Position numbers and translations under genes: made by a program | Shown here: positions 3,023-28,155 of the stretch, one piece after another | Layout of the letters: the number at the start of each line of letters is the position of its first letter | How positions within the stretch are numbered: position 1 is the first letter of the stretch | Source of the DNA: a virus | Lineage: Duplodnaviria > Caudoviricetes | Strand: one strand, 5' to 3' | Virus record (IMG/VR): IMGVR_UViG_3300042923_001013 | Coordinates: 1 to 28,155 of that record | DNA length: 28,155 nucleotides | The notes under the pieces: generated by a model | What the model saw: the letters and a program-made list of their open reading frames with translations, nothing else | Databases searched by the model: none | What the model was told of the DNA's origin: nothing

Positions 3023-3253
3023 GTGCTCGATCCCATGCCCGACTGGGTTTTATCCCGCCGCCGGCAGATCGGGGAGCGCATCCGTAGCGCGCGCCGCACG
3101 GCGGGTCTGTCTCAGCTGGAGCTGGCCATCCGCGTCGGCCGCGACCATCGCACCGTCCACCGGTGGGAGTACGCGACCGCCGACCCGTCACTGTCCGACC
3201 TGCTGCTGCTTGCAGCCGCGCTCGGCGTACCGCTGCCCGAGCTGGTGAAGTGA
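3023..3253 (+). CDS. Small XRE-family HTH regulator containing a TTA codon
   Basis: IGERIRSARRTAGLSQLELAIRVGRDHRTVHRWE; alternative start ATG 3035; in-frame TTA at 3050-3052. Confidence 0.85.
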   Translation: MLDPMPDWVLSRRRQIGERIRSARRTAGLSQLELAIRVGRDHRTVHRWEYATADPSLSDLLLLAAALGVPLPELVK

Positions 3254-3289
3254 GCGGCCGCCCCCGACGGGGGTGGCGGGGACGGCCGC
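3254..3289. terminator. Hairpin between convergent genes
   Basis: GCGGCCG.CCCCG ... CGGGG.CGGCCGC directly after the stop codon. Confidence 0.55.
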
Positions 3290-3335
3290 CGTCTGGCCCG
3301 CTACCGGCGCCGTCGGAACTTCCGGTAGCGGGGGC

Positions 3336-3548
3336 TCATTCAGACCACTCCACGCCCTTGACGGACGTGGGCTTGGCCCGGCCGGTGTAGTAGTCGACGT
3401 GCTCGGAGTCGGTGTGCGGCTGCCGAGTGCAACGGCCGAGGCCCTTGGGGTGCTCCAGCCAGCAGTAGCCGGCCGCGCGGCCACCGGACTGCTGAGCACG
3501 CAGCGCGCGCGCCAGCAGGCTCATGTCCTTGTCGGTGGTCCGGGTCAT
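3336..3548 (-). CDS. Small hypothetical protein, putative C2H2-type Zn binder
   Basis: ATG overlaps the upstream stop (ATGA); C-x10-C-x4-H-x4-H motif; 70 aa. Confidence 0.65.
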   Translation of the reverse strand: MTRTTDKDMSLLARALRAQQSGGRAAGYCWLEHPKGLGRCTRQPHTDSEHVDYYTGRAKPTSVKGVEWSE

Positions 3549-3886
3549 CGCCACTCCTGCCGGACGAGGCGGAACAGGGCGCGGTGGACGTCGCAGGCGG
3601 CGGCGTCGTCGGCGCACTGCGTGCAGGTCGCGGCGTGCACGAACAGGGCATCATGTGCCCGGCTGGCCGCGCAGGTCCGGCAGGACCGGGGGAACCACCG
3701 CTCGTCTCCGTCGCGCTGCTCGTCCATGCTCAGGGACGACTCGCCCGTCAGCGGGGCTCGGCACCAGACACAGCACGCGCCGCGCTGCTGAGCGTCGGGC
3801 AGATCCTCGCGCTGCGGCAGAGCCAGCACAGCGAGTACTTCCTGGGGGATCGCGTCTACGGACGTATGGGCGGTACCGTGCGCCAT
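3545..3886 (-). CDS. Cys/His-rich hypothetical protein (putative Zn fingers)
   Basis: CVWC...CRTC...HAATCTQC...CDVH; SD GGAG upstream. Confidence 0.75.
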   Translation of the reverse strand: MAHGTAHTSVDAIPQEVLAVLALPQREDLPDAQQRGACCVWCRAPLTGESSLSMDEQRDGDERWFPRSCRTCAASRAHDALFVHAATCTQCADDAAACDVHRALFRLVRQEWR

Positions 3887-3952
3887 GTCGACTCCAGTCA
3901 GTCGGCCACGCCCCGGGCCGTGTCAGCGGCCGCGGGGGCTTTCCATGTGGTG

Positions 3953-4025
3953 ACCGTACGCCGCTTGTCAGGTGTTGTCATGTGACGTCAGCCGACGAGA
4001 GGCATCGACGTAGCACACCTACGGT
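3953..4025. promoter_or_regulatory. Divergent promoter region with phased GTCA repeats
   Basis: TACGGT -10 boxes on the - strand (3953-3958) and + strand (4020-4025, 6 nt before the GntR ATG); TTGTCA/TTGTCA/ACGTCA at 3965, 3975 and 3985. Confidence 0.55.
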
Positions 4026-4031
4026 CGATAT

Positions 4032-4274
4032 ATGACCGTGGACCTCGACGGACCCGAGCCGCTGTACGAACAGATCGCCACGATCCTCGCTGCCCGCATC
4101 ACCGACGGCACGTACCTGCCGCGCCGCCGGATCCCCTCGGAGGCGGACATCGTCGCTGAGTTCTCGGTGTCGAGGCCGACCGCACGGGCGGCCGTGCAGC
4201 TGCTCATCGAGCGCGGCCTGGTCCACACAGTGCGCGGCAAGGGCTCGTTCGTGGTGGACTCCCCCCGGACATGA
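4032..4274 (+). CDS. Stand-alone GntR-family winged-HTH regulator
   Basis: PLYEQIA...IPSEADIVAEFSVSRPTARAAVQLLIERGLVHTVRGKGSFV; no effector domain. Confidence 0.92.
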   Translation: MTVDLDGPEPLYEQIATILAARITDGTYLPRRRIPSEADIVAEFSVSRPTARAAVQLLIERGLVHTVRGKGSFVVDSPRT

Positions 4275-4314: not shown

Positions 4315-4989
4315 TCACGGGTACTGACGGCGCGTGGGGTCGAGGCCGGCGGAGAGAAGACCGCCCCCGCCCCCGTTGCCGGGCTGTGGATCGGGTGCTC
4401 CGTCGCGGCGGCACACGAGGGCGTCCGGATCGTCGGCTGGGGGCTGGAGGCTGTAGCCGTCGGGGCAGGCAGGGCCGGGTGCCCCGGGTTCGCCGCGAGG
4501 CCCCTGCTCCCCGCGTTCTCCCTGTGGGCCTGGCGGCCCGGTCACGGTGTCGCCCGGCGGTCCCTGCGGTCCCACAGGTCCTGGCACGGTGGAGTCGTCG
4601 CCGTCCCGGCCGGGCGCTCCGGACGCGCCGGGTGACGGGGTGATGGTGGGCGCCGGCCGTCCAGGTTCTCCCTGCGGACCGCGGGGACCCGGGATCGGCA
4701 CCGGCACCTCGGCGCGGGCAGGCAGGTCATCGACCGCGTCGGACGGATCCGGCGCGACCGGCGTCTCACCCTCACTCCTCACCTGCGTCCTCAGCTCACG
4801 TACGTCTGTGGCCAGCGTCGTCACGGCCTGGCCGCGCCGGTCCGCCTCGGCCGCGAGCTGGTCGGCGCGGCTGGTCTCGGCGTCGATACGCCCCCAGACG
4901 ATGACGACCGCGCCGGACAGGGCGACCAGCCAGCACAGCAGCGCCAGCGGGCGCCAGCGGCGGGCCAGCGCCCGCTCTGTCCGGGTCAC
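4315..4989 (-). CDS. Membrane-anchored collagen-like protein (lysis cassette)
   Basis: N-terminal TM helix, coiled coil, Gly-X-Y repeats, C-terminal Cys pair; start overlaps the upstream stop. Confidence 0.8.
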
Positions 4990-22161: not shown

Positions 22162-23691
22162 TCACCAGATGTTGTCCATCGGATCGCTGTCCTCCTCGAT
22201 CTCGACGCCCAGGCCCCACTTCGCCAGCGTCACCGCGACAAGCGGGCTGATATCGACGTTCACGCCGCGCCGGGCCCAGGCCCACGCATCGCCGAGCGGG
22301 CGCTTCTGCGCGCCCGCCAGGGCCGCGGCGAGCGGCGCCTGGTCGAGGTGGGACATGGTCTGCTCGGTCGCGGCGTCGTAGAACTGGCCGCATGCAGCGG
22401 CGACCTCGCGCACCTTGGGCGAGACGATCTTCACGCCGAGCCGCGCCGCCAGCTGCTCGATGAGCGAGCCGGCCGGACCGCCCGCGTCGACGACCCAGCA
22501 GCGCGGGCGATGCCGCTCGTGCAGCTCTGCCGCCCGGTCCAGCAGCCAGCCCGTGCCGGGCCGGTGGTCGATCACCTCAACGTGCGTACCGCCCCGCCAG
22601 GGACCGGCCACGCCGATCGCCGCGTGGCTGCGCTCCGGCGTCATGTCGATGGCCATGGCCAGCGAGCCTTCCGGGGCGGAGTCCGCAGCTGCCAGTGCCC
22701 GCCACACAGCCTCACCGAGGACCTGCCAGGTGTCGGCCGTGAGGGCCGGGTAGTCGCCCACGCCGAGCCGCTCGCGGGCGTAGCCGGTCGCACTCAGCGT
22801 GACGCGCTCGTTGGCGACCTTCGCCAGCGTGAGCCGATAGCCGATGGCGGGGTTGGACTTCAGCACCGCTTCGTCGGACGCGGTGTCGTCGTGGGCCGTG
22901 CAGTCGGGCGGGCACTCGTCGACGTGGGGGTCGACCGACCACTCGAAGTAGGCCAGCGAGGGGTCCGGCACGCCGGCCTCGATGGCGGCCAGGGCCCGGT
23001 GCCGCAGCCGGGCGAGCTGGACGGACGGGGCACCGATACCCGCGCTGCCCAGGTACCAGATCTGCGGATCCTCAACGGCCGCCATGGTGGGCAGGAGCGC
23101 GTCCATCTCGTCGTCGCCGAGCACCATGTCCTCGTCGAGCATGTTCGCGTTACCGGTGAAGCCTCGGCCGGAGCCCTTGGAGCGGGCGATGAACTGCAGG
23201 ATCTGCCCGGTGTGCAGCTCGATCAGTTCCTCACCGACCGTATACCGGTACTGCTTGACCCGTTTATGCAGGTCAGGGCATCCACGGATCAGTTTCTCGA
23301 TCCGCTTGAAAGCCTTCTTCGCAGTCTTGAACTCATGGGCACTGTGAAGGATCAGATCCTCGCCACCGAGGAACAGGCCCCACAGCTCCCGCGCTTCGAT
23401 GATCGCGCCCTTGCCGTTCTGCCGTGGCAGGTTGACCGCGACTTCGAACGACGCCCAGGACCCGTCAGGCCTCTCGCCCATGCCGACGCGCAGGACGTGC
23501 TGCTGCCACGGGTCTAGGTGCAGGCCTGCCTTCGCCGCGAGGTCGATCGCCTCCTGTCCCGCGGTGGACACCGATGGGGGCGCGATCTCGATCGGCGGCG
23601 TCTGCCAGCCGTACACACGGCCGTCCTCAGCCTTCTGCGGCCCGCTCACGGGCAGCTGCCCGGCGCTTGGCTCGCTGCTCAGCAAAGTCAT
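22162..23691 (-). CDS. terL: Terminase large subunit
   Basis: LDPWQ, Walker A PRQNGKG, Walker B MLDE, nuclease AIDM...DISPLVA; probable start ATG 23691. Confidence 0.93.
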   Translation of the reverse strand: MTLLSSEPSAGQLPVSGPQKAEDGRVYGWQTPPIEIAPPSVSTAGQEAIDLAAKAGLHLDPWQQHVLRVGMGERPDGSWASFEVAVNLPRQNGKGAIIEARELWGLFLGGEDLILHSAHEFKTAKKAFKRIEKLIRGCPDLHKRVKQYRYTVGEELIELHTGQILQFIARSKGSGRGFTGNANMLDEDMVLGDDEMDALLPTMAAVEDPQIWYLGSAGIGAPSVQLARLRHRALAAIEAGVPDPSLAYFEWSVDPHVDECPPDCTAHDDTASDEAVLKSNPAIGYRLTLAKVANERVTLSATGYARERLGVGDYPALTADTWQVLGEAVWRALAAADSAPEGSLAMAIDMTPERSHAAIGVAGPWRGGTHVEVIDHRPGTGWLLDRAAELHERHRPRCWVVDAGGPAGSLIEQLAARLGVKIVSPKVREVAAACGQFYDAATEQTMSHLDQAPLAAALAGAQKRPLGDAWAWARRGVNVDISPLVAVTLAKWGLGVEIEEDSDPMDNIW

Positions 23692-24089: not shown

Positions 24090-24527
24090 TCACCAGGACC
24101 GGGACGCCTGCGGCATCGCTGCCCGTGAGGCCGCCGGCCGCTGCCGGTACCAGCGGGTGACGACCCGCTTCATCTCCGGGTCACGCATCGCCTCGACGCG
24201 GGCCATGACGATCTCCTGCCCAGGGTCCACGGTGACGATCCGGGCGCCGAGGCGCTTGTACTTGGCCATGGCCTTGGCGCTCGGCATGGTGTGGATCAGG
24301 TAGACGTCGACCGTGTCACGCAGCTCGAACGCCGCGTCCATCGCGGCATAGCGGGCGCGGTGGGCGACGCGGAGGATCGTCGGGTCCTGGTTCCACGCAG
24401 GGGCGCCAGGCCCAGCGAGGGCGCGGGTGATGAGGTCCAGGTCGATGACGATGTCACGCGCTGTGGCGTGCGACTGGATCCATGACGACTTGCCCGAGGC
24501 CGGCGGGCCGGTGATCACGTACAGCAC
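24090..24527 (-). CDS. Small P-loop NTPase/kinase-like (AAA_33-like) protein
   Basis: LYVITGPPASGKS Walker A; IVIDLD. Confidence 0.85.
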   Translation of the reverse strand: MLYVITGPPASGKSSWIQSHATARDIVIDLDLITRALAGPGAPAWNQDPTILRVAHRARYAAMDAAFELRDTVDVYLIHTMPSAKAMAKYKRLGARIVTVDPGQEIVMARVEAMRDPEMKRVVTRWYRQRPAASRAAMPQASRSW

Positions 24528-24529
24528 GG

Positions 24530-24736
24530 TCAGTTACCCGCGAGGTCGACGACGTACTGGACGCTGTCCCCGTCGCGTCCGCTCTGCAGCGCGAGCGTGA
24601 TGCCGTCGATCTCGATGTGGTCGGTGCCGTAGGCGCAGAGAGTTACCCCGGTCTGTGCCGTGGTCTCGGCCATGCGGTCGAGAGCGTCGGCGAGGCGACG
24701 GAGTGTCGCCGCACCCATCAGGCTGGCCACGTTCAC
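24530..24736 (-). CDS. Hypothetical protein
   Basis: GTG overlaps the HNH stop, SD GGAGGTG; fills the gap exactly. Confidence 0.6.
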   Translation of the reverse strand: MNVASLMGAATLRRLADALDRMAETTAQTGVTLCAYGTDHIEIDGITLALQSGRDGDSVQYVVDLAGN

Positions 24737-25017
24737 CACCTCCGTGAGGCTCGCTGGGTGGCCGCCCTGGCCGCCTGCGGTGTGCGGTTGCCCTTGCTGC
24801 TGTTGCACCGGCGGTGCGCCGGCCTGGCGTTGGCCGGGTCAAGCAGGTCGCCGCCGCGGGAGAGTGCGATCTCGTGGTCGAGGGTGAAGGACAGCGGATG
24901 GCGTGCGTCGAGCTGGTAGCCGATCTCGTGGCCGCACAGCCAGCAGGGAAGGCGCTGGGCGCGCAGCCAGGCGCAGAGCCGACGGTAGGGGCGCCCGTTG
25001 CGGGGGTTGCCGGGCAC
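24733..25017 (-). CDS. HNH endonuclease (terminase-associated type)
   Basis: CWLCG...DHEIALSRGG...N...AHRRCNSSKG; GTG after AGGGAGG. Confidence 0.9.
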   Translation of the reverse strand: MPGNPRNGRPYRRLCAWLRAQRLPCWLCGHEIGYQLDARHPLSFTLDHEIALSRGGDLLDPANARPAHRRCNSSKGNRTPQAARAATQRASRRW

Positions 25018-25031
25018 GGGCGCCTCCCTTG

Positions 25032-25313
25032 CTACTGCTCGCCGAGCAGCTCGTCCGGGTCGACGTTGCCGTTCTCGTCGATGATGCCGGTGTCCTTGAG
25101 AGCCTCGGACATCCGGAGGGCGTCGTAGTCGTCCTGTGACAGTCCCTTGCAGGCGTCGGGCCAGTCGGTGGCACTGGCCTGCGTACCGGAGGCAAGTGCC
25201 TTCTGGCAGTCGGTGGCGATCTCTTCCTCGGACTTGTCGCTGCTGCAGGCGGCGAGGCCTGTGACGGCTACGAGGGCGAGCAGGGCGGTGCATGCGGCGG
25301 TGCGGGTGTTCAT
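25032..25313 (-). CDS. Small lipoprotein
   Basis: Signal peptide with lipobox LAAC; acidic mature part with two further Cys. Confidence 0.85.
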   Translation of the reverse strand: MNTRTAACTALLALVAVTGLAACSSDKSEEEIATDCQKALASGTQASATDWPDACKGLSQDDYDALRMSEALKDTGIIDENGNVDPDELLGEQ

Positions 25314-25414
25314 GGTCCCCCCAAGGACGTCAGGCGCTGAGGGGGCATCATCCGGCGCGTCGCGCGGGCCTGGTGGCGGTGTGACCGTCTTGTGACGGCT
25401 GGGCTGGTACGACG

Positions 25415-25456
25415 AAGCCCCTGGCCGGTCGGGTGAGCGATCGGGGCCAGGGGCTT
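25415..25456 (-). terminator. Terminator-like hairpin
   Basis: 12-bp stem AAGCCCCTGGCC/GGCCAGGGGCTT. Confidence 0.65.
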
Positions 25457-25495
25457 TGTGTGGCTGTTGTGTCCGGGCACGCCGGACGTGAGGCC

Positions 25496-25541: not shown

Positions 25542-26132
25542 CTACGCGATCCGGTGGCGTCGGTTGGTCTCTGACAGGTCGTAGATGATCAGTCCTCCGT
25601 CGGTCCGCTCGACCCGCACCCCCTGTTGGTTGTGTTGTTGTTGCAGGTCAACACCGCCCACAGGGGGCGCAGCAGGGGGCCGGGGGAGGGGCGGTAGGTC
25701 GTCCTTGTGTACGCCTACGCCCGTGCGGGTGCCGCAGCGTACGGCGCGGCGTACGCGGATGCCGAGGGCCTCGAGGAGTGCGCGGGTGACGTCCATGGAC
25801 AGGCCGCGGGCGTCGGCGAGGTCGGCGAGGAAGACGTGCGGGTCGGCAAGCTGGTGCATCGTCTGGGCCAAGGGCTCGCGGTCGTCCTGGGCCTGGTCCT
25901 CGTCGGCGGGGCCGCCGCGGCGCCGGGTGATCCACCGGCGGGCCCGCTGCCATCCGTGTGTGCCGAGGACGCCGGTGATGACGTAGGCGGTCTCGGGCAG
26001 GACGGCGACGATCCCCCACATGGCGCCCAGCGCGACGGCGGCCAGGATGGCGCGGGCGGTGCGGTCGCTCATCCCGTCTCGCTCCCCCGGGCCGTCGGCG
26101 GCCGCGGGCTCGGTCTCCTGCGGCACGCTCAT
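25542..26132 (-). CDS. Membrane protein with soluble C-terminal domain (possible HTH)
   Basis: ATGA-coupled start; 1-2 TM helices; HVFLADLA...TRALLEALGI.VR..VR...GVGVH. Confidence 0.75.
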   Translation of the reverse strand: MSVPQETEPAAADGPGERDGMSDRTARAILAAVALGAMWGIVAVLPETAYVITGVLGTHGWQRARRWITRRRGGPADEDQAQDDREPLAQTMHQLADPHVFLADLADARGLSMDVTRALLEALGIRVRRAVRCGTRTGVGVHKDDLPPLPRPPAAPPVGGVDLQQQHNQQGVRVERTDGGLIIYDLSETNRRHRIA

Positions 26133-26635
26133 CCGAATGCCGCCGTGAACCAGGCGCCGAGCAGGTTGACCGAGGAGCCGAGGGGGACGGCGGCGATGCC
26201 GGCCACGGTGCCGGACAGGGCCACGGAGACGCCCGAGAACGCGCCGGCCGCCAGCTTGCCGTTGGACACCTTCGGAGCCCACTTCCACAGGGCGATCAGC
26301 ACCATGGTCAGCAGGAACACGATGACGTAGCCGCCGGGTGTGAGGGCGAGCTGCTGGGCGCGGGTGACGTCGGGGGCGGTGCCGCCGACGCCCCAGACGA
26401 GGCCGATGTAGCCGGCCACGTTCGCGGCCCACACGGTGGCCCAGGTGGCCATGCCGAGGGCGGAGATCGAGCCGAGGGCGGCCAGGGCGGCGAGCATGCC
26501 GTACAGGTGGGCCAGGACGAAGGGGACGAGGGCGGCGGGCTGGCGCTTCTCCTTGAGGCACCAGCGCAGGACGAAGGTGAGGACGACGCCGACGCCGAGG
26601 GCGACTCCTCCGAGGTTGATGGCCATGTAGGGCAT
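26129..26635 (-). CDS. Multi-pass membrane protein
   Basis: MPYMAINLGG...; at least 4 hydrophobic segments; SD GGAG. Confidence 0.8.
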   Translation of the reverse strand: MPYMAINLGGVALGVGVVLTFVLRWCLKEKRQPAALVPFVLAHLYGMLAALAALGSISALGMATWATVWAANVAGYIGLVWGVGGTAPDVTRAQQLALTPGGYVIVFLLTMVLIALWKWAPKVSNGKLAAGAFSGVSVALSGTVAGIAAVPLGSSVNLLGAWFTAAFG

Positions 26636-26637
26636 GG

Positions 26638-26802
26638 TCAGTGGCTCCAGACGGTGGCGACGTAGGCCGCGGCGAGGGTGAGTACGGCGACGGTGCAGAT
26701 GGCGGGTGCGAGGTAGAGGCCGGGTGCGCGTCGGGGTGCGAGTGCGCGCAGCCCGAGTGCGGCGACGAGTGCGACGGTGGGCCAGACGAGTGCGGTGCCC
26801 AT
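26638..26802 (-). CDS. Small two-TM membrane protein
   Basis: TGATG-coupled to the upstream gene; 54 aa, hydrophobic. Confidence 0.7.
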   Translation of the reverse strand: MGTALVWPTVALVAALGLRALAPRRAPGLYLAPAICTVAVLTLAAAYVATVWSH

Positions 26803-27390
26803 CAGGCGGTCTCGGGCAGGAGCGGCTGGATGCGCTGCGCGCGCTTCTGGCCGATGCGCAGCTCGGTCTGCAGGCGGCGCAGGGATGCGCGCTGGCCGGT
26901 CTCGGCGAGTGCGCGGCGGTTGACCTGGAGTGCGGATGCGAGGAGTGCTGCATCCGCATCCGGGCCGGGCAGTTCGCGTACGACGGATGCGGGTGTGCGG
27001 GGCTCGGGTTGCGGTTGCGGTGCGGGTGCATCCGGGGCCTGAGCTGCGGCGGATGCGGTTGCGCTCTCCTGCGGGTGCGGGTGCGGCGCTGCATCCGCCG
27101 TGGTGGGCTCGGCGACCTCTACGGCCTGTTCGGCTGCGTGCTCGAAGTCGTCGGCGGGGCGCGGGGGTGTGAGGGCGGCTGCGGTCTGGATGCGGTGCAG
27201 CGTGTCGTGCACCTGGCGCATGAGTGCGCCGAATGCGATGAGTGCGGCGGACGGGGGCACGGCTGCGACGACGTACTCCATCGGTTGCGCCCCGTTGCCG
27301 ACGCCGAACACGTTGAGTGCGATGGAGCCGAGGGAGCCGACTGCGGCGAGGGCGTAGGCCCACTTGTCGATTGCGCCTCGCAGGGATGCG
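26704..27390 (+). repeat. Polar array of short (GNN)TGCG repeats embedded in coding sequence
   Basis: About 37 TGCG on the + strand by manual count, mostly GAGTGCG, GGATGCG, GGGTGCG, GGTTGCG, GGCTGCG. Confidence 0.8.
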
Positions 27391-27584
27391 CGCAGCACGA
27401 GCAGCTCGCCCGCGACGATGAACAGGTCGACGGTGGCGGGCCAGGCCCAGGCGCGGGCGCCGGTGAGGCCGTTGCTGCTGGCGATGTCGTGCAGGTGTTC
27501 GTAGGACAGCCAGAAGGCGGCGGCGGTGAGTGCGATGGTGACGGCCGCGGCGCCGGCGGCGAGGCCTGCGGTCGGGTTCTTCAC
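26802..27584 (-). CDS. DUF2637-like membrane protein (plasmid spread-protein-like) with FtsK-gamma-like C-terminal HTH
   Basis: AFWLSYEHL.D.A...G...AWAWPATVD, S.ALNV, AAVPP motifs; Pro/Ala linker; ASLRRLQTELRIGQKRAQRI. Confidence 0.8.
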   Translation of the reverse strand: MKNPTAGLAAGAAAVTIALTAAAFWLSYEHLHDIASSNGLTGARAWAWPATVDLFIVAGELLVLRASLRGAIDKWAYALAAVGSLGSIALNVFGVGNGAQPMEYVVAAVPPSAALIAFGALMRQVHDTLHRIQTAAALTPPRPADDFEHAAEQAVEVAEPTTADAAPHPHPQESATASAAAQAPDAPAPQPQPEPRTPASVVRELPGPDADAALLASALQVNRRALAETGQRASLRRLQTELRIGQKRAQRIQPLLPETA

Positions 27585-27607
27585 GGGGCTCCTCGGAGCG
27601 AAGTGGG

Positions 27608-27643
27608 GGCCGCCCCCGCGGGGGGAATGTCGCGGGGGCGGCC
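27608..27643. terminator. Intergenic hairpin
   Basis: 13-bp perfect stem GGCCGCCCCCGCG/CGCGGGGGCGGCC. Confidence 0.55.
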
Positions 27644-27653
27644 GGTCTGTGGG

Positions 27654-27845
27654 TCAGCGGGAGTAGCGGCCGCTGCGGTAGCGCTCGGCGTCGCGGTCCT
27701 TGGCGTCCCAGTCCTGGCCGGCGCGGTCGGCGGCGCGGGCGCCGTCGGTCTTGGACCGGCGGAAGCGGGAGGCGGAGCCGGTGACGCTGGTGCCGGCGGC
27801 CGGGTAGGCCCGGGTGGACTGCGCGGCGCGGGACAGCCAGCCCAT
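27654..27845 (-). CDS. Small basic hypothetical protein
   Basis: TGATG-coupled; high GC3 codon usage. Confidence 0.7.
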   Translation of the reverse strand: MGWLSRAAQSTRAYPAAGTSVTGSASRFRRSKTDGARAADRAGQDWDAKDRDAERYRSGRYSR

Positions 27846-28129
27846 CAGTGGTCGCCGCCGGGCTCGTTGCCGTGGACGCGGGCCTGGTGGGCGAGCTGGG
27901 CGCGGCTGGCCTGGGCGTGGGCGTAGTCGACGGCGGCGCGGCCGACGATCTGGCCGGCGGTCGCGGTGCGGTCCTCGGTCCAGGGCGTGGGCGCGGGCAG
28001 GTCCGGCTGCGGCAGGGGCTCGGCGGGTCCGGCGATCTCGCGCAGGAGGGCGGCGTAGGCGCTGCGGGTGATCCGCTCGGTGATCTCCGGGGCCTGGTCG
28101 CGCAGGCGGCGGGCCAGCGGCGGGGACAT
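27845..28129 (-). CDS. Hypothetical protein, probably 5'-truncated by the window edge
   Basis: The frame stays open upstream of ATG 28129 to the window end; high GC3. Confidence 0.65.
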   Translation of the reverse strand: MSPPLARRLRDQAPEITERITRSAYAALLREIAGPAEPLPQPDLPAPTPWTEDRTATAGQIVGRAAVDYAHAQASRAQLAHQARVHGNEPGGDH

Positions 28130-28155
28130 CGTGGTGGCCTGGATGAGCGCGGTAC

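Follow-up and report, generated by a model that had tools for sequence, protein, structure and literature searches.

A four-gene membrane cassette in a temperate actinophage, likely a plasmid-derived transfer operon without the TraB motor

The locus considered here bears on whether phages may cross from one compartment of a mycelium to another without lysing them. The window is a 28,155-nt stretch, the full length of its own IMG/VR record (IMGVR_UViG_3300042923_001013), with the layout of a temperate actinophage: an integrase-type gene, lysis and tail genes, capsid, portal, terminase and HNH genes. Next to the packaging genes it carries four small membrane-protein genes, here called A to D, which the original prediction compared with the spread genes of Streptomyces plasmids and from which it proposed a phage/plasmid hybrid lifestyle. 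Profile searches, predicted structures and gene order indicate that the four genes are likely a plasmid-derived transfer operon without the TraB motor.

Operon structure and its plasmid counterpart

The four genes lie on the minus strand in the order A-B-C-D. A (26802..27584; 260 amino acids, aa) is a DUF2637 membrane protein with four transmembrane segments, a Pro/Ala linker and a helix-turn-helix (HTH)-like C-terminus, B (26638..26802; 54 aa) is a two-transmembrane protein, C (26129..26635; 168 aa) is a Gly-rich membrane protein, and D (25542..26132; 196 aa) combines a membrane hairpin with a winged helix. The junctions TGATG (A/B), TGA-CC-ATG (B/C) and ATGA (C/D) provide the stop/start overlap of small membrane genes found in Spd/TraB transfer operons, and a hydropathy scan assigns four, two, four and one membrane segments to A, B, C and D. 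The predicted set of four coupled membrane genes (260, 54, 168 and 196 aa) proves real.

By profile comparison, C is a homologue of the gene that immediately precedes traB in large plasmids. L097, a plasmid-type transfer region, has a tandem pair of C homologues ahead of an 822-aa protein that bears Walker A and B motifs. The L097 C matches 10 plasmids, and in all five that were opened the match directly precedes an 830-840-aa TraB-like gene, annotated FtsK/SpoIIIE in three of them. The L097 ATPase matches 49 plasmid records; a 155-172-aa membrane gene precedes the ATPase in nine of the 11 opened, with an annotated DUF2637 gene further upstream in five of those nine, and the remaining two contain DUF2637 and no C-type gene. 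A forward C profile, built solely from close phage sequences, scored 48-80 bits on seven and 33 bits on one of 16 plasmid-type pre-traB genes. The reciprocal plasmid profile gave the window C 63 bits (E 2.4e-18), with 9.6 for the best non-C among 2,609 proteins. A quick tree, midpoint-rooted and hence giving no direction of transfer, with duplicates and C proteins shorter than 140 aa left out, clustered five phage C with six plasmid-type C (support 91). The connection is visible only via profiles and the intermediate L097; tblastn with the window C, the window D and one island C against 72,556 plasmids returned zero matches.

Taken with the gene order, this homology means that A-B-C-D mirrors DUF2637-X-C-traB, with D occupying the traB slot. 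Large Streptomyces and Kitasatospora plasmids (NZ_OX419521, NZ_CP107888, NZ_CP134613) share the order and a homologous C, and have after their last gene the same DNA core as phage D, with repeats flanking it. That last gene is a 720-870-aa ATPase in the plasmids, where phages and islands have a protein of 100-330 aa. The neighbourhood survey of phages and plasmids that had been proposed yields a parallel order, and the plasmid-transfer link, through relatives of A, the pre-traB homology of C and the likeness of D to TraB ends, is stronger than could be seen from the window. Two tandem C paralogues before traB (L097 11027-12040; L109-L112) are a feature of one plasmid group.

A word search gave 179 relatives of C at E<=0.001, a full profile search 73 clusters, and among 10 distant relatives looked up every organism name given was Streptomyces or Kitasatospora. 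The window C found zero matches in 50,697 phage records; since phages OnionKnight and VWB carry homologues, this blank and those of the plasmid searches mean little. The AlphaFold model of C has six helices (pLDDT 72), for which Foldseek returned nothing at E<=0.001 and the best VIA Z was 5.0. B-slot proteins are in one family in 50 of 51 cases, and one D family follows C in 61 of 67 distinct loci, as called by our gene caller.

A passes the PF10935 (DUF2637) cut-off, with 57.6 bits against 22.8, the original prediction having named DUF2637-like genes as common in plasmid spread clusters; we take DUF2637 to be the SpdB2 family. Its relatives on three small Streptomyces plasmids share 58-68% identity over 40% of its length, covering the membrane domain, and in two of the three the relative stands two genes after FtsK. 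The A gene (783 bp) holds 11 GCATCC/GGATGC sites, 10 of them in an array at 26831..27194, against 33 in the whole window. The PHROG label "excisionase" for A was rejected, the match covering the DUF2637 membrane region. The same label is carried by DUF2637 membrane proteins in PHROG and RefSeq (PHROG 733, NC_014229 gp15, NC_070828 gp38), probably a propagated mis-annotation.

Protein D and the DNA element at its end

D likely represents TraB without the ATPase, a membrane hairpin followed by a winged helix that matches TraB C-termini, the match being weak. In the AlphaFold model (24 rows) a helical membrane hairpin at residues 23-71 is followed by a helix-helix-strand domain with pLDDT >90 at 91-150, the winged helix spanning residues about 88-150; within its 196 aa, hairpin and winged helix make up the model, and there is no ATPase domain with Walker motifs. 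Foldseek found weak winged-helix matches alone (best E 0.027), and an actinobacterial FtsK cluster among the low-scoring structural neighbours in the ESM Atlas (TM 0.36) is a lead only. By hhalign, the winged helix matched TraB C-termini with a probability of 43% using 16 sequences and 83% using 21 (E 8.7e-6, score 34.1), one of the 21 (L127) being a broken gene with a frame that stops short of this domain; among 100 decoy families the highest score was 24.7. In the reverse comparison the D family ranked first of 101 (29.6 against 19.2), TraB N-termini likewise put a D family at the top of 101 families (27.6 against 23.0), and the D profile matched the end of pFP1 TraB with E 0.007 among 2,636 frames. 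On these comparisons D fairly probably descends from TraB. Divergent pairs of D have ratios of nonsynonymous to synonymous substitution (dN/dS) of 0.51-0.95.

The 3' end of D contains a putative clt-like element (25616..25670), a repeat array around the core GCAGGTCA at 25643-25650. Excerpts of PMC3583192 place clt at the 3' end of tra, recognised by the C-terminal winged helix, and the position of the array matches that of clt beside the traB 3' end. In D genes the element follows just past the winged-helix codons, as GTTG repeats, the GCAGGTCA core and CAAC repeats. It is inverted in the window and some other loci and occurs in either orientation within D; since the two orientations read as different peptides, it is a feature of the DNA and not of the peptide. 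The exact 7-base core GACCTGC occurs in 10/16 plasmid traB ends (background 0.115), 23/40 long D ends (0.076) and 4/19 short D ends (0.058), counts inflated by related loci, and also in 5/5 additional traB-type ends. Each plasmid has its own repeats flanking the core after traB. In the distant phage cassettes L100, L102, L105, L107 and L106, other repeat types (CTAC/GTAG, CTCTC) stand after D, and a 180-240-aa Pro-rich membrane gene replaces B, like the plasmid X slot.

The original prediction saw no TraB/FtsK in the window, and the same holds in record L001, a near-identical phage of 38,202 bp with direct terminal repeats (99.98% DNA identity across 4,162 bp), and in 11 other phage records: a TraB query found 0 in these 12, with plasmid controls positive in 3/3. 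L001 contains no Walker-A protein of at least 300 aa; par genes were not searched by profile. Among cassette loci, the only Walker-A protein of at least 300 aa resembling TraB, judged by eye, is that of L097. Two further searches say less: PF01580 gave 0/16 with a profile that misses L097-type TraB, a weak test, and a two-sequence FtsK profile found nothing in cassette loci, L097 included, so that it is no real test. Integrated relatives also occur. With a tyrosine integrase present and no TraB in 12 phage records, the proposed hybrid lifestyle is unsupported.

Possible roles of the cassette

Excerpts of PMC4447253 describe the pSVH1 genes spdB3-spd79-spdB2 as acting with TraB in spread, and SpdB2 as pore-forming, peptidoglycan-binding and required for spread; one sentence of that 2015 text already raises the idea that the homologues of SpdB2 in phiC31 and VWB aid the spread of phage DNA. 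Compared with the pSVH1 operon spdB3-spd79-spdB2-orf108-traB and its clt, the phage has neither the TraB ATPase nor the divergent GntR repressor, the comparison being made here through A alone. The cassette is outside the Spd/TraB systems, lacking motor and GntR repressor, yet would work like their membrane part.

From the homology, synteny, domain layout and sites, we infer the binding, assembly, location and transport steps of the account that is favoured here, tentatively and with a little less than an even chance: a membrane complex would hold the element's own DNA and likely aid its spread between hyphal compartments, with a motor in trans. A and D would bind the repeat arrays inside their own genes, and A-D would come together in the membrane at cross-walls. 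Circles of phage DNA, excised or replicating, would then be passed to an FtsK/TraB motor supplied by the host or a co-resident plasmid, and transfer through cross-walls would let infection or lysogeny extend further along the hypha.

A number of observations weigh against this account. Plasmid spreading involves TraB itself, according to the excerpts of PMC4447253, and the cassette encodes no motor, so the mechanism requires a separate partner. The cassette is modular: only 17 of 54 A-slot proteins exceed the DUF2637 cut-off, the others belonging to membrane families of which some are linked and some separate, and several loci have a small soluble HTH gene in the A position. The winged helix is missing from roughly one third of D forms (19 scored short), and longer relatives of D were searched for and none found. 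The D/TraB match falls to a probability of 0.2% with subsets of three and five TraB, the last five of the 21 TraB joined the set after the pFP1 match was seen, and a TraB profile fails to single out D among 1,848 single proteins. Eight of the 16 pre-traB genes reach no more than 14 bits with the phage-only C profile. The GCAGGTCA core, which recurs elsewhere, is not specific to clt, with eight sites in the window, one of them among the repeats directly after the integrase, and the inflation of its counts by related loci adds to these points.

A possible but rather doubtful reading makes motor-stripped TraB an adaptor of temperate Streptomyces phages and their satellites, whose anchor, winged helix and own clt redirect host FtsK or plasmid TraB to pump viral DNA across hyphal cross-walls. 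If true, roughly one in ten Streptomyces species would harbour a virion-free route by which viruses spread within a multicellular bacterium. The loss of the ATPase domain, if true, would be a case of a DNA pump turned DNA tether.

The anatomy of the cassette, with its anchors in the membrane, its HTH domains, repeat arrays of its own and no motor, would also suit a complex that only tethers, with A and D anchoring the excised element at the membrane for positioning, segregation into branches or spores, or replication, and no passage through cross-walls. Excerpts of PMC4170104 cite spdB2 as stabilising plasmid SLP2 and describe SpdA2 as binding a site inside its own gene and affecting stability, not spread. 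This explanation is unlikely, as an integrated prophage needs no partition system, and as tethering leaves unexplained why the channel-like C and B are best kept while the D winged helix can be lost.

Defence cargo is common in prophages and satellite-like islands, and the membrane proteins of the cassette are shared by both. Together with the variable first gene and the divergent small regulator before many cassettes, this is what would be expected of an exclusion or interference complex, which might block other phages, jam plasmid transfer with D as a dominant-negative TraB, or kill compartments in Kil-Kor fashion when de-repressed. The toxicity of SpdB3 in E. coli and the lethality of unregulated traB, both reported in the excerpts of PMC4447253, fit as well. 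Such a role is nevertheless judged improbable, the kept clt-like cis site being better suited to handling the element's own DNA than to blocking foreign DNA; PADLOC recognised 0/9 proteins, which excludes little given its incomplete 2023 library.

It is very unlikely that the clt-like site and D recruit the TraB of a resident plasmid, so that the element moves between mycelia by conjugation besides virions. D and its array do resemble a TraB C-terminus and the clt position, distant D genes have CTAC/GTAG repeats similar to the ones that follow traB in pFP1 (a candidate clt), and satellite-like islands keep the site alongside a short D. Against such hitch-hiking, TraB specificity depends on its own winged helix and repeats (Vogelmann et al., as cited in excerpts of PMC3583192), and the AAC-type repeats of the phage match 0/21 plasmid arrays by eye. 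Finally, a degenerating plasmid relic without function in the phage is scarcely credible: the motor is lost and one C is frameshifted (G057), but the coupled operon is intact in dozens of unrelated phage backbones, and C is under purifying selection in 7/7 pairs (dN/dS 0.20-0.54).

The favoured account, a DNA-holding membrane complex with a motor in trans, can draw on defined parts, the C-D core and the D repeat site, in two isolated phages. VWB gp24-gp26 correspond to A, C (122 bits) and D with a winged helix (50 bits), with the core at the end of gp26, and OnionKnight gp57-gp60 correspond to A-B-C and a short D; these genes are annotated only as hypothetical or membrane proteins. In VWB gp25 (L125 17668-18918, 416 aa) the C homologue is the last 170 residues, from an internal Met, and the annotated starts of gp25 and gp26 probably lie too far upstream. 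Phages phiC31, phiSASD1 and Dubu show an A match alone (weak for phiC31, E 0.018) and none for B, C or D, and SLP2 has no match to the B, C or D profiles. We take pZL12 to be a Streptomyces plasmid-phage that joins virion and plasmid transfer genes and replicates as a plasmid with its own tra, unlike the present phage, which integrates and has no TraB.

What is new is that C corresponds to the plasmid pre-traB protein, along with the likely TraB-remnant D with its clt-like site, the frequency of the cassette and the satellite-like islands. Searches of openly readable papers turned up no account of C, of D or of the DNA core, nor a function for the plasmid C. The results also draw attention to C as an uncharacterised membrane protein encoded before traB on large plasmids.

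Distribution, islands and neighbouring features

The C profile matched 39/401 Streptomyces genomes; in a sample of the phylum it matched 3/401, all three already in the genus set. About 20 kb of each of the 40 loci of the genus sample was examined. Terminase or portal genes stand nearby in 28, which are prophages. Another 10 are islands that carry replication genes of the primase type and have neither terminase nor portal within the stretch examined. The remaining two are the plasmid-type transfer region L097 and a 6.7-kb contig. An HK97 capsid protein is present in four of the ten islands and a small terminase subunit in one, suggesting that they may be phage satellites similar to phage-inducible chromosomal islands (PICI).

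The integrated islands of 10-15 kb (L076, L078, L079, L080, L083, L088, L089, L093, L094, L095 and L027) carry DUF6907 genes beside replication genes of the primase or AAA_25 type, with an integrase visible in most and a tape-measure-like gene in two; no large terminase or FtsK was seen in them. They look like undescribed Streptomyces phage satellites.

Two hairpins, expected from the original prediction to bound the operon, both fold stably against block shuffles: one of 13 bp and G+C composition between the upstream 63-aa gene and A (27608..27643, minus strand; z -4.3) and one closing the operon, inverted repeat I20 (25409..25461, minus strand; z -4.9). Both are free of T-runs, and scans of the window found zero sigma-70 promoters and zero T-run terminators. 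The neighbouring packaging genes are also confirmed, the HNH gene (24733-25017) and terminase (22162-23691) lying 0.5-2 kb beyond the operon.

The claim of two small upstream open reading frames (ORFs) stands for the 63-aa basic protein (27654..27845, minus strand), whose family also has members in loci of phages and islands, as well as in L097, the traB locus of plasmid type (E 4e-24). The supposed 94-aa ORF is instead the 3' part of a 156-aa soluble gene (27845..28155, minus strand) truncated by the window end, complete in L001 and without a family match. L001 extends the window by 8.5 kb upstream, adding this gene, a divergent 91-aa protein and early genes. No divergent GntR-type TraR/KorA repressor precedes the operon; the 91-aa protein found there in L001 has no Pfam match, and an 80-aa GntR-like gene lies far from the operon, at 4032-4274. 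Divergent small regulators precede many cassettes (e.g. L001 7907-8182) and fall into two families, with clusters of 21 and 11.

The tyrosine recombinase gene (995-2302) was identified by a weak match. Directly 3' of it, at 2340-2515, CTCGG/CCGAG repeats flank a TGACCTGC core; this region is probably attP with arm sites, in which case the record would be the excised form. After those repeats, at about 2465-2505, follows a stretch that we take to resemble a tRNA 3' end; a scan of the window detected no tRNA genes. XRE and GntR-like regulators (3035-4274) stand between att and the lysis genes, and a 224-aa collagen-like membrane protein (4315-4989) adjoins holin-like genes. A 145-aa AAA_33 ATPase-like gene (24090-24527) precedes the small terminase, with a similar gene at this place in related phages. 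The cassette is followed by a lipoprotein-like gene of 93 aa (25032-25313), which likewise has a counterpart there in related phages.

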